A stretch of 64,000 nt of DNA, taken from a virus. The position numbers and the translations under genes were made by a program. Position 1 is the stretch's first letter; every line of letters starts with the position of its first letter. Positions 60,775 through 62,214 of the stretch are shown here, in pieces. Under the pieces are notes generated by a model that was not told the origin of the DNA, did not search any database, and saw nothing but the letters and a program-made list of their open reading frames with translations. The stretch spans positions 1 to 64,000 of the IMG/VR virus record IMGVR_UViG_3300047160_007939. The stretch is one strand, 5' to 3'.

Positions 60775-62214
60775 TCACGACGCTCCCACCGGCCCGTTGC
60801 GGTATCCCGCGCTGATGTCAGAGAGCATCGCCCTGATCGTCTCGGTGTCGTCCGCGAACCGCTGGCGCTGTCTTTCGGCTTCGGCTTCCAGCTCTCCGAT
60901 GCGCGCCTTCAGCCGGTCGTTCTCCGCCGCTATCTCTTTGGACGCCTCGTTGACCGCCTCAAGCGCGCCCCAGAGACGCACGCGCGGGTCCATCCCACCG
61001 ATGAGCAGCAGCTCTCCGTGGCCGTTCCCTTCGTCCAACACGACGACGGACGTGTTGGCTTCCTCATCGTCGTGCCACTCCTCGGCTCGCTCTTCCTCCG
61101 GCTCTGTCTCATCCCAACCTGTGTTGGCAGGCGCGAAGACATCGCTCACGTCTACCGCTGCCAGTTCTTCCTCGGTCGGCGGCTCGAACTGGCGCTCGCT
61201 GTCAACGGTTCTCTCGATAGTAGCGGCTTGCTCGTGGATGTCGGTTCTCTCATCGTGGTCGGCTCGCTCGTCGGGGTCGGTTCTCTCCGGTCGGACGGCT
61301 CGCTCTTGCGGCTCGGTTCTCTCCACTGCACCGGCTCGCTCATCTGATACGGTTCCCTCGTCTACGACGGCTCCCAGAGCCTGCTGTGCCAGTTGGGTGG
61401 ACAGGTCAGGGAGCGGGGCAAGCCCACACATCACCAGCGGATCGACGTTGAGTGCCGCCGACACCTGCTTCAACCGCTTCTGGCCGCAGCCGGTGTAGCG
61501 GCCATTCTCCCAACAGTCGAGGCTGGCTTTGTTGATGCCGCTGATGTCGGCCAACCCCCAACGGGTCAGGCCGGCTCGCTCTCGCAGCTCGCGGAGCACG
61601 TCGCCGTCAACGTGCTCCAGGTCCTTCGGGGGTCCACGGTGGGCTGCCGGCTTGCTGGCCGGCTCGGGCAACACGGCGGCTGCGCCGTTCGGCTGGGGAG
61701 GCGCGGCATCCACCTCCTGAAGATACTCCACGTTGGTCTTCAGCACGCTCGCCAGCTTCGCCCACCGGTCGGGCATCGGGGTATACAGCCCCTTCTCCCA
61801 ACAGCGGATGACTTCCGGCGAGACGCTCATCCGGCTCGCCACCTCACGCCGCTCCATCCCGGCATCCTTCCTCGCCTGGATGATCCGGTCAGGGTTCAGC
61901 GGCGGCACAGGCGAAGGGTCTTCCGTCGCACCCGTGCAGTAGTCCACGGACACGTCCAGGAGCTTGGCGACCTTCACCAGCATCCCGGTACGCATACTCC
62001 GCTCGTGCGTCTCCCATCGCTCAACCTGGGTCGCCATCCCGCTACTGTGGCCCAGCCTGCCGGCAAGCTGGGCGCGGGACCATCCCTTCTTCTGCCGGGC
62101 GTTGGTCATCCGCTCCGGCAGCGTTCGCAGTGTCGTCAGCAGCTCGGCGCGCGTGCCCGCCTGGGAAGGCGTGGGCGCGGGCCGGCCTGCGGCCTGGCCT
62201 GCGGCCTGGGTCAT
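60775..62214 (-). CDS. XRE-family regulator with three HTH domains
   Basis: ARQKKGWSRAQLA..WE, ARKDAGMERREVA..WEKG, LRERAGLTRWGLA..WENG; C-terminal coiled coil; AAAGGAG RBS. Confidence 0.8.
   Translation of the reverse strand: MTQAAGQAAGRPAPTPSQAGTRAELLTTLRTLPERMTNARQKKGWSRAQLAGRLGHSSGMATQVERWETHERSMRTGMLVKVAKLLDVSVDYCTGATEDPSPVPPLNPDRIIQARKDAGMERREVASRMSVSPEVIRCWEKGLYTPMPDRWAKLASVLKTNVEYLQEVDAAPPQPNGAAAVLPEPASKPAAHRGPPKDLEHVDGDVLRELRERAGLTRWGLADISGINKASLDCWENGRYTGCGQKRLKQVSAALNVDPLVMCGLAPLPDLSTQLAQQALGAVVDEGTVSDERAGAVERTEPQERAVRPERTDPDERADHDERTDIHEQAATIERTVDSERQFEPPTEEELAAVDVSDVFAPANTGWDETEPEEERAEEWHDDEEANTSVVVLDEGNGHGELLLIGGMDPRVRLWGALEAVNEASKEIAAENDRLKARIGELEAEAERQRQRFADDTETIRAMLSDISAGYRNGPVGAS
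61188..61376 (-). repeat. TIGR-like dual-repeat array (5 x 36 nt) inside XRE gene
   Basis: Same alternating 9-nt repeats with unique 9-nt spacers, translated as ERAxxxERTxxx. Confidence 0.8.

Follow-up and report, generated by a model that had tools for sequence, protein, structure and literature searches.

A five-unit dual-repeat TIGR array lies in frame within a triple-HTH regulator gene of a soil phage

Introduction

TIGR-Tas systems were described only in 2025. In the published definition of the dual-repeat form (Faure et al. 2025, PMC12045711), edge and loop repeats alternate, short spacers A and B lie between them, the unit measures 36 nucleotides (nt) and the edge repeats at the array ends are truncated; a rho-independent terminator after the array is given there as typical, not as obligatory. 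The described system closest to the one examined here is SpTIGR-TasH of the Salicola phage CGphi29, a dual-repeat TIGR-Tas with 8+8-nt spacers. In-frame tigRNAs have also been reported inside tas genes, as in BlTasA of Bifidobacterium longum; these are mostly of the stem-loop type and "less frequently dual repeat" (Xu et al. 2026, bioRxiv 10.64898/2026.09.09.750476). The same preprint notes Tas loci in compact viral genomes without a detectable array and describes nuclease-less TasA and dead TasR as RNA-guided transcriptional repressors. Here we analyzed the first 64,000 nt (the window) of the soil phage record IMGVR_UViG_3300047160_007939, a genome of 119,514 bp with 97-bp terminal repeats and 64.5% G+C. 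Within the window, a five-unit dual-repeat TIGR array lies in an open reading frame (ORF) that encodes an XRE-family regulator with three helix-turn-helix (HTH) domains, and a sister array of the same repeat pair lies in a primase-like gene.

The locus shares with SpTIGR-TasH the truncated edge repeats, the box-like repeat ends, a nearby Nop-type Tas protein with the Tyr/His processing pair, and its residence in a phage. It differs, as far as the compared sections of PMC12045711 go, in that the XRE array is placed inside the coding sequence of an unrelated gene with no terminator after it, that the arrays of the phage are distributed in seven blocks over 24 kb rather than simply flanking tas, and that the Tas protein has neither an HNH nor a RuvC domain and carries a 77-residue insertion (residues 160-236). 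With the intragenic tigRNAs of the BlTasA type, it has in common the in-frame units, their placement in presumably disordered segments, the intact coding sequence and the notion of a possible link between the maturing of guides and translation. In those cases the host gene is tas itself and the units are mostly stem-loop, whereas here the host genes encode an XRE regulator and a primase and the units are dual-repeat; Tas cutting would therefore hit mRNAs of other functions. The preliminary description of this DNA held that no TIGR-type arrays had been described inside coding genes. That statement was too broad in view of the tas cases, although non-tas genes are not mentioned in the compared parts of that preprint. 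In the published text that we compared, arrays inside non-tas genes were not found; supplementary tables, which may list such arrays, lie outside this comparison.

Results

The regulator gene contains a dual-repeat TIGR array

On the plus strand, nine full 10-nt repeats follow one another at an exact 18-nt spacing, CGGTTCTCTC alternating with CGGCTCGCTC. The minus strand, which is the coding strand, reads GAGAGAACCG and GAGCGAGCCG, the loop repeat and the edge repeat, respectively. Both ends of the array are truncated edge repeats, which in the sense direction read CTGGG/AGCCG (61368-61377) and GAGCG/CCAGT (61188-61197), with the bar marking the presumed cut. The distance from presumed cut site to presumed cut site (61193-61372) is 180 nt, equal to 5 x 36 nt or 60 codons (residues 281-341 of the ORF). 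The array was initially described as five perfect 36-nt units with unique spacers. All ten 8-nt spacers are indeed different and the period is exact, without insertions or deletions (indels); the repeats are less perfect, as 7 of 9 are exact and the other two, the loop repeat GAGGGAACCG and the edge repeat GAGCAAGCCG, carry a single-base change each. Even so, with nine consecutive repeats of at most one mismatch each, this array is the most regular of the seven in the genome. Its translation is EGTVSDERAGAVERTEPQERAVRPERTDPDERADHDERTDIHEQAATIERTVDSERQ, a succession of ERA and ERT with one EGT and one EQA. The placement first proposed, in frame as ERAxxxERTxxx in the linker after the third HTH, agrees with the ORF translation and with the Pfam match HTH_19 at residues 206-259, which ends about 20 residues before the array.

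To assess chance occurrence, we counted the two 10-mers with up to one mismatch and compared the counts with 100 shuffles of the window. The window contained 55 and 26 copies, while the shuffles gave means of 19.5 (largest 29) and 6.4 (largest 16), and the copies were clustered in phased arrays. Because the counts exceed those of the shuffles and the copies are both clustered and phased, chance is excluded. This is a true TIGR array of the dual-repeat type, five units long, with two alternating 10-nt repeats, short variable spacers, a 36-nt unit and edge repeats truncated at both ends; a rho-independent terminator downstream is the one element of the described anatomy that is absent. The assignment to the TIGR type made in the preliminary description is borne out by this anatomy and by six more arrays of the same repeat pair in the genome. 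Arrays of other contigs also contain the loop variant GAGGGAACCG, as well as ends of the forms xxxxxAGCCG and GAGCGxxxxx.

We also compared the window with contigs from four soil runs, in which cover is patchy and differences are partly listed. One contig (X23) spans 61106-61521 and its XRE array is identical to that of the window. Among these contigs, no 36-nt indels were found in the intragenic arrays. Two joints between arrays (57122 to 61241 and 57052 to 44783) rest on short sides, and we attribute them to the assembly or to look-alike sequences. The coordinates of the features are collected in Table 1.

Table 1. Positions of the arrays, their host genes and associated elements (window and genome numbering coincide)
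Feature	Position	Strand	Basis
Triple-HTH XRE-family regulator ORF, 479 amino acids (aa), holds array	60775..62214	-	ORF, Pfam, codon score
Five-unit dual-repeat TIGR array in XRE gene, including two half edge repeats	61188..61377	-	alternating 10-mers, 18-nt phasing, unique spacers
Full repeats of the array in XRE gene	61206-61359	-	repeat scan
Second HTH domain, residues 111-165	61720..61884	-	best HTH_3 stretch (Pfam)
Third HTH domain, residues 204-259, last folded domain before array	61438..61605	-	HTH_31 204-241, HTH_19 206-259
Long C-terminal helix, residues 410-473	60796..60987	-	model pLDDT 81-97; codon score +0.49 in frame
Promoter-like site TTGTAA-17-TATAAT	62269..62297	-	consensus scan; 55 nt upstream of first ATG of ORF
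Sister intragenic array, three 36-nt units, same repeat pair	44716..44823	-	in primase-like gene 44042-45097
Full repeats of the array in primase gene	44729-44810	-	repeat scan
Largest array of window, 20 repeats, non-coding, between terminase ORF and next gene	56931..57358	-	stops in all three sense frames
Full repeats of the intergenic array	56949-57341	-	repeat scan
Arrays of the repeat pair beyond the window	64455-64646; 66046-66164; 67404-67541; 68390-68653	-	repeat scan
Tas gene, 388-aa protein (outside window)	66168-67334	-	TasR/TasH matches

The regulator gene is coding on both sides of the array

Nearly all genes of the window, including the XRE ORF, are held by the minus strand. Pfam assigned HTH_3 to three stretches of the XRE ORF above the cut-off (E 2.6e-22) and HTH_31 with an E-value of 8.2e-18. 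From these domains the product is an XRE-family HTH regulator, for which DNA binding and a regulatory role are predicted. In frame, the codon log-likelihood was +0.47 bits/codon for the HTH part and +0.53 after the array, and the other two frames were negative. For the 134 codons after the array (residues 346-479), the off-frame scores were -0.59 and -0.80. As a reference, windows of the other long genes of the phage averaged 0.44 in frame and -0.54 off frame. With three HTH domains upstream and typical in-frame codon usage downstream, the ORF is coding on both sides of the array. The single-sequence AlphaFold model of the protein was poor, with a mean predicted local distance difference test score (pLDDT) of 47; in it, the array region was modelled as coil with low confidence, and the sole confident part was the helix of residues 410-473. 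Encoded downstream of the array and in frame with it, this helix belongs to a tail that also contains an acidic stretch, and on the basis of the model it is probably a coiled-coil oligomerisation element. The three HTH_3-type domains are what the protein has in common with multi-HTH phage regulators of the XRE/Cro-C1 type (HTH_3, HTH_31), and they are the sole part shared with homologues; in contrast to those regulators, it has a linker of 60 residues that the array encodes, besides an acidic tail and a long C-terminal helix.

IMG calls the gene as a 444-aa form that starts at M36, and the true start codon is uncertain. The full-length protein was called on 14 contigs, and the soil-run contigs showed no frameshift in the ORF. 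In the 90% cluster of the protein, the differences were confined to start variants and one V297A change, which falls within a spacer. A 12-nt tandem repeat, GGCCTGGCCTGC, at codons 3-6 (62180-62209) is polymorphic: contigs of two 2025 soil runs and the protein variant P0002 have a 12-nt deletion there. A consensus scan for sigma-70-type promoters around the gene found two sites with 0.2 expected, and the same scan found no promoter-like site between the one listed in Table 1 and the array.

Searches with the protein returned little beyond its HTH domains. The scan of viral contigs found no XRE orthologue, and a word-indexed search returned the protein itself and one HTH protein at 27% identity. 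HMMER gave 750 hits, and all of the 150 listed aligned only within residues 5-294, except for P0009, an identical 68-aa fragment of the XRE protein. Among these listed matches, from 1.84 billion representative proteins searched, none was homologous to the array linker, the acidic tail or the C-terminal helix.

Selection acts on the nucleotide sequence of the repeats

Across the 119.5-kb genome, the repeat pair of the XRE array makes up seven arrays of one orientation, which together comprise 70 repeats at up to one mismatch and are dispersed over 24 kb. Four of the seven arrays, the largest of the window among them, have stop codons in all three sense frames. In the XRE array, Arg of ERT is encoded by AGA in four of four cases, and Arg of exact ERA by CGA in three of three; these codons make up 3.6% and 11% of the Arg codons of the phage, respectively. 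If the codons were chosen independently under phage codon usage, the joint probability would be 2.6e-13. The only two repeat variants of the array are both non-synonymous (R to G and R to Q). The codon score inside the arrays was 0.19 bits/codon for the XRE gene and -0.32 for the primase gene, as compared with 0.47-0.53 and 0.36-0.42 in their flanks. Since the repeats recur in non-coding arrays and in another frame, rare Arg codons are fixed and the variants are non-synonymous, selection acts on nucleotides, not on the peptide. Recent duplication cannot explain the identical repeats, because the codons between them all differ. The preliminary description had named an ERA/ERT peptide conserved among homologues, with synonymous changes in the 9-mers, as the pattern that would speak against a guide function; the evidence within this genome points to the opposite. 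The residues encoded by the spacers of the XRE array were more acidic than those of random stop-free spacers (net 8, as compared with 1.6 on average; of six tests, one reached P about 0.01), which hints that the spacers were shaped by both protein and guide use.

Several details of the other arrays were recorded. In the intergenic array, three successive spacers share the sequence TCCATTGG (sense) and are combined with edge-type repeats (57029-57103); this 18-nt tandem triplication is a local duplication that breaks the alternation of edge and loop. An 11-nt edge variant, GAGCGGAGCCG, has an extra G at the presumed cut site and makes 37-nt units; it occurs four times in three arrays (57003-57013 and about 57204-57214 in the window, about 67476-67486 and 68625-68635 in the genome). 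The array at 66046-66164, located downstream of tas, has no stop in the ERT/ERA frame and reaches the first possible start codon of a methyltransferase-like ORF (65373-66119), so that it may overlap the coding part of that gene at its 5' end.

The primase-like gene contains a sister array

The three-unit array of the primase-like gene is located between the Zn-ribbon and the DUF7146/Toprim domains identified by Pfam. It is one base out of register as compared with the XRE array and is translated as REP/SEP instead of ERT/ERA. Two orthologues, P0156 (59% identity in BLASTP) and L049 (70% identical to P0156), have no array. In both, a conserved DDAPPE motif is followed by a linker of 12-16 residues, and it is exactly there that the phage has its 108-nt array. 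As the closest primase orthologues lack an array at this point, the arrays appear, from sequence comparison, to behave as 36-nt modules that can be inserted in linkers. The length of the linker varies in more distant primase homologues, and the site is unconserved in 14 aligned homologues; relatives of the primase were not found in viral contigs. One soil-run contig (X8) covers 44205-45253 with the whole primase array, and X23 covers 44415-44814, leaving the last 9 nt of the array outside; both are identical to the window. The array-less linkers of L049 and P0156 read PEPGKEPEPKP or PELGEEPKP and are encoded with GAGCCG-like words. These words could be the remnant of a decayed array, or microhomology where the array arose.

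A cognate Tas protein is encoded nearby

A Tas homologue is encoded 4.8 kb from the XRE array, flanked by two arrays, and it has the Tyr/His pair of tigRNA processing. It matched TasR (9mty_A) in phmmer with an E-value of 2.6e-10, and a family profile of 23 members matched 9mty_A at 4e-24 and TasH (21kl_A) at 7e-14. Its AlphaFold model is all-helical with a pLDDT of 84.6, and all ten Foldseek matches at E <= 0.001 were TasR or TasH chains, each with a probability of 1.00. The Pfam Nop model PF01798 had no hit in the genome, and the only Pfam match of the protein was Transposase_20 (E 2.5e-4); the assignment to Tas thus rests on matches to sequences in the PDB, on the profile and on the fold. 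Y289 and H296 of SpTasH, which are catalytic residues for pre-tigRNA cutting according to the compared part of PMC13421893, align with Y352 and H359 on the P-Y...G-H motif of the family, in which H359 is invariant and Y352 at least 90% conserved among the 23 members. The presence of this pair suggests that the phage Tas would cut autonomously.

Pfam found no nuclease family in the protein. The family profile aligns from residue 121 of TasR and residue 83 of TasH, which is after the nuclease domains of both. By its sequence, this Tas is without an HNH or RuvC domain and is TasA-like. It shares the lack of a nuclease domain with the TasA and dead TasR repressors described in the compared sections of 10.64898/2026.09.09.750476, and its output is therefore likely binding or repression rather than DNA cleavage. 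It differs from those cases in that no self-target was found: a search of the phage genome with 31 units in both geometries and with gaps of 0-2 gave no match at up to one mismatch, the same as the controls. No unit was within three mismatches of any of 948 units in other contigs. An array inside the tas ORF was not detected, the nearest arrays ending at 66164 and starting at 67404. Residues 160-236 form a helical insertion of about 77 residues in the Nop region, and many relatives in other contigs are without it, as their tblastn matches split into 1-159 and 237-367.

Intragenic arrays are rare in the repeat family

The exact repeat pair was found in 47 IMG/VR contigs. Phased arrays of at least four repeats were present in 44 of them and a Tas homologue (tblastn, E <= 1e-5) in 37. 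A scan of genome contigs matched seven, three of which have arrays, in metagenome-assembled genomes of three different phyla. Across the family, the repeats have the form GAG..(4)..CCG, with positions 1-3 and 8-9 conserved at 93-100%, and the A-rich centre of the loop repeat is AGAA. In the edge repeat, C4 and G7 form an additional pair, which is preserved as U-G in the internal variant seen most often, GAGTGAGCCG (7 of 304). Boxes may be assigned to the repeat ends by analogy with TasR (UG...CCA). The repeat anatomy parallels box D, box C, the tetraloop and the extra pair described for TasR, and it marks the minus strand as the RNA sense.

Outside this phage, three more arrays have at least 100 nt of open sense frame on each side (L003, L028 and L032). 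Eight open sense frames were inspected and Pfam was run on six of them. The six candidates for embedded arrays (L003, L008, L010, L028, L032 and L039) were rejected, as their upstream flanks look non-coding and none has a Pfam domain. The intragenic arrangement is rare in the repeat family, and the two cases of this phage are unusual.

Discussion

We assign a probability of roughly 0.6 to the reading that a real TIGR array stands in frame in the disordered linker of a translated triple-HTH gene whose mRNA is likely cut by Tas. The array has the sense orientation and a promoter-like site was found only upstream of the ORF, so an mRNA of the XRE gene must include five full pre-tigRNA units. The seven arrays and tas are all oriented as the genes are. 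We infer transcription through the array, cleavage of the mRNA by Tas and a regulatory effect. The preliminary proposal of an mRNA that doubles as guide precursor, with guide production possibly coupled to regulation, is partly supported. The phage Tas would bind the units in the XRE mRNA and cut in the middle of the edge repeat (GAGCG/AGCCG). Such cutting would release five 36-nt guides and at the same time sever the mRNA, separating the part that encodes the HTH domains from the part that encodes the acidic tail and the C-terminal helix. The production of guides from the XRE array would then compete with the synthesis of full-length regulator. A bolder version, which we regard as tentative and rather unlikely, is that the embedded arrays are programmed cut sites, at which Tas accumulating in the course of infection excises guides from the regulator and primase mRNAs. 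If so, the regulator and a replication protein would be shut off, or the regulator trimmed to a tail-less HTH form, at a time set by the activation of the guide-loaded effector, and effector biogenesis would be wired into the expression programme of the phage.

A number of findings weigh against cutting of the regulator mRNA, and some of them favour the main rival, that the array is a passenger which landed or grew in an insertion-tolerant linker, with mRNA cutting incidental and of no regulatory consequence or the substrate poor, for example because it is occluded by ribosomes. We consider this rival unlikely, though it is the one to be taken most seriously. Units of 36 nt never break the frame. 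In trials with random arrays built from non-coding spacers, 62% of those with five units had no stop in the ERA/ERT frame, and 40% of those with three units had none in the SEP/REP frame; because the open frame is unremarkable, a neutral tolerated insertion would look alike. The primase linker occurs with or without an array while the flanking domains are kept, and in the 44 other array-bearing contigs none of 67 arrays lies convincingly between two coding domains. At position 5, beside the presumed cut, one edge repeat of the XRE array has A; among 304 edge repeats from other contigs, 99% have G there. No terminator-like site was found after the XRE array, where the ORF runs on for 429 nt. 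The search of the phage's own genome yielded no guide target, and no XRE orthologue was found that would reveal gain, loss or a change in the number of units. Finally, TaTasR is needed for maturation, yet it is not the catalyst of the cut, according to the compared part of bioRxiv 10.64898/2026.08.11.744272. Against a passenger status stand the regularity of the XRE array, which has no indel and speaks against decay, and the occurrence of arrays in two independent genes of one phage; the acidic residues encoded by the spacers also hint at dual shaping.

The remaining explanations concern the transcript, the gene and the peptide. Guides might come from a separate transcript with a promoter inside the XRE gene, so that the mRNA is not consumed. 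The compared text of Xu et al. (10.64898/2026.09.09.750476) leaves such a promoter open for intragenic tigRNAs in tas genes. In this gene the scan for sigma-70-type sites found none between 62297-62269 and the array, and the full-length mRNA would carry the same cut sites anyway; we regard this explanation as improbable. A broken gene is very improbable: the inserted array would have inactivated the regulator or divided it in two, and the frame that stays open downstream would be a recent relic. The openness across the array is not improbable by chance, and no orthologues were found that could attest to a conserved C-terminal part. Against a split gene stand the typical usage of the 134 codons after the array, the confidently predicted 64-residue helix that they encode, and the full-length protein called on 14 contigs together with the lack of a frameshift in other soil samples. 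The chance that the ERAxxxERTxxx peptide repeat was selected at the protein level, with the DNA periodicity as a by-product, is close to nil. In its favour, the repeat keeps the frame and is hydrophilic, a frequent trait of repeats in linkers. This explanation is already contradicted, however, by the same 10-mers in stop-filled non-coding arrays and in another frame in the primase gene, by the lack of synonymous variation in seven exact repeats despite rare Arg codons, by the intervening codons, which all differ and argue against recent duplication, and by the repeat pair, which tracks the Tas gene in 37 of 47 contigs.

A canonical dual-repeat array in frame in genes that have no relation to tas, its repeats translated in two different frames within one phage, is a clean example of DNA under two constraints at the same time, as protein code and as guide-RNA precursor. 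If Tas does cut these mRNAs, the making of guides would double as post-transcriptional control of the regulator and the primase. On the bolder version above, TIGR arrays could more generally colonise linkers in genes of any kind, in the form of in-frame modules of 36 nt. Array finders that are limited to intergenic DNA near tas will miss such guides in annotation, and one way to explain the apparently "arrayless" Tas loci of compact viral genomes would be guides concealed in genes next to them.

Other features of the genome

A terminase-like ORF on the minus strand (57354-60617) carries an intein, which matched the Pfam family Intein_splicing with an E-value of 1.5e-5, below the cut-off, and the middle part of the ORF is translated into a low-complexity sequence rich in Arg, Ser and Gly. 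On the opposite strand, 59369-60106 (+) encodes an HTH-HTH-HNH endonuclease (HNH_3, E 1e-12; HTH_23, E 4.5e-10). Because this clean frame lies opposite the low-complexity middle, a homing endonuclease seems to be encoded antisense inside the intein. A giant minus-strand ORF of 2599 aa (32130-39929) contains tandem repeats at 35672-36578 and 38519-39063, with periods of 480 nt (1.9 copies) and 240 nt (2.3 copies) and 73-76% matches. Two more giant ORFs, of 2270 and 1843 aa, are located at 13770-26110.

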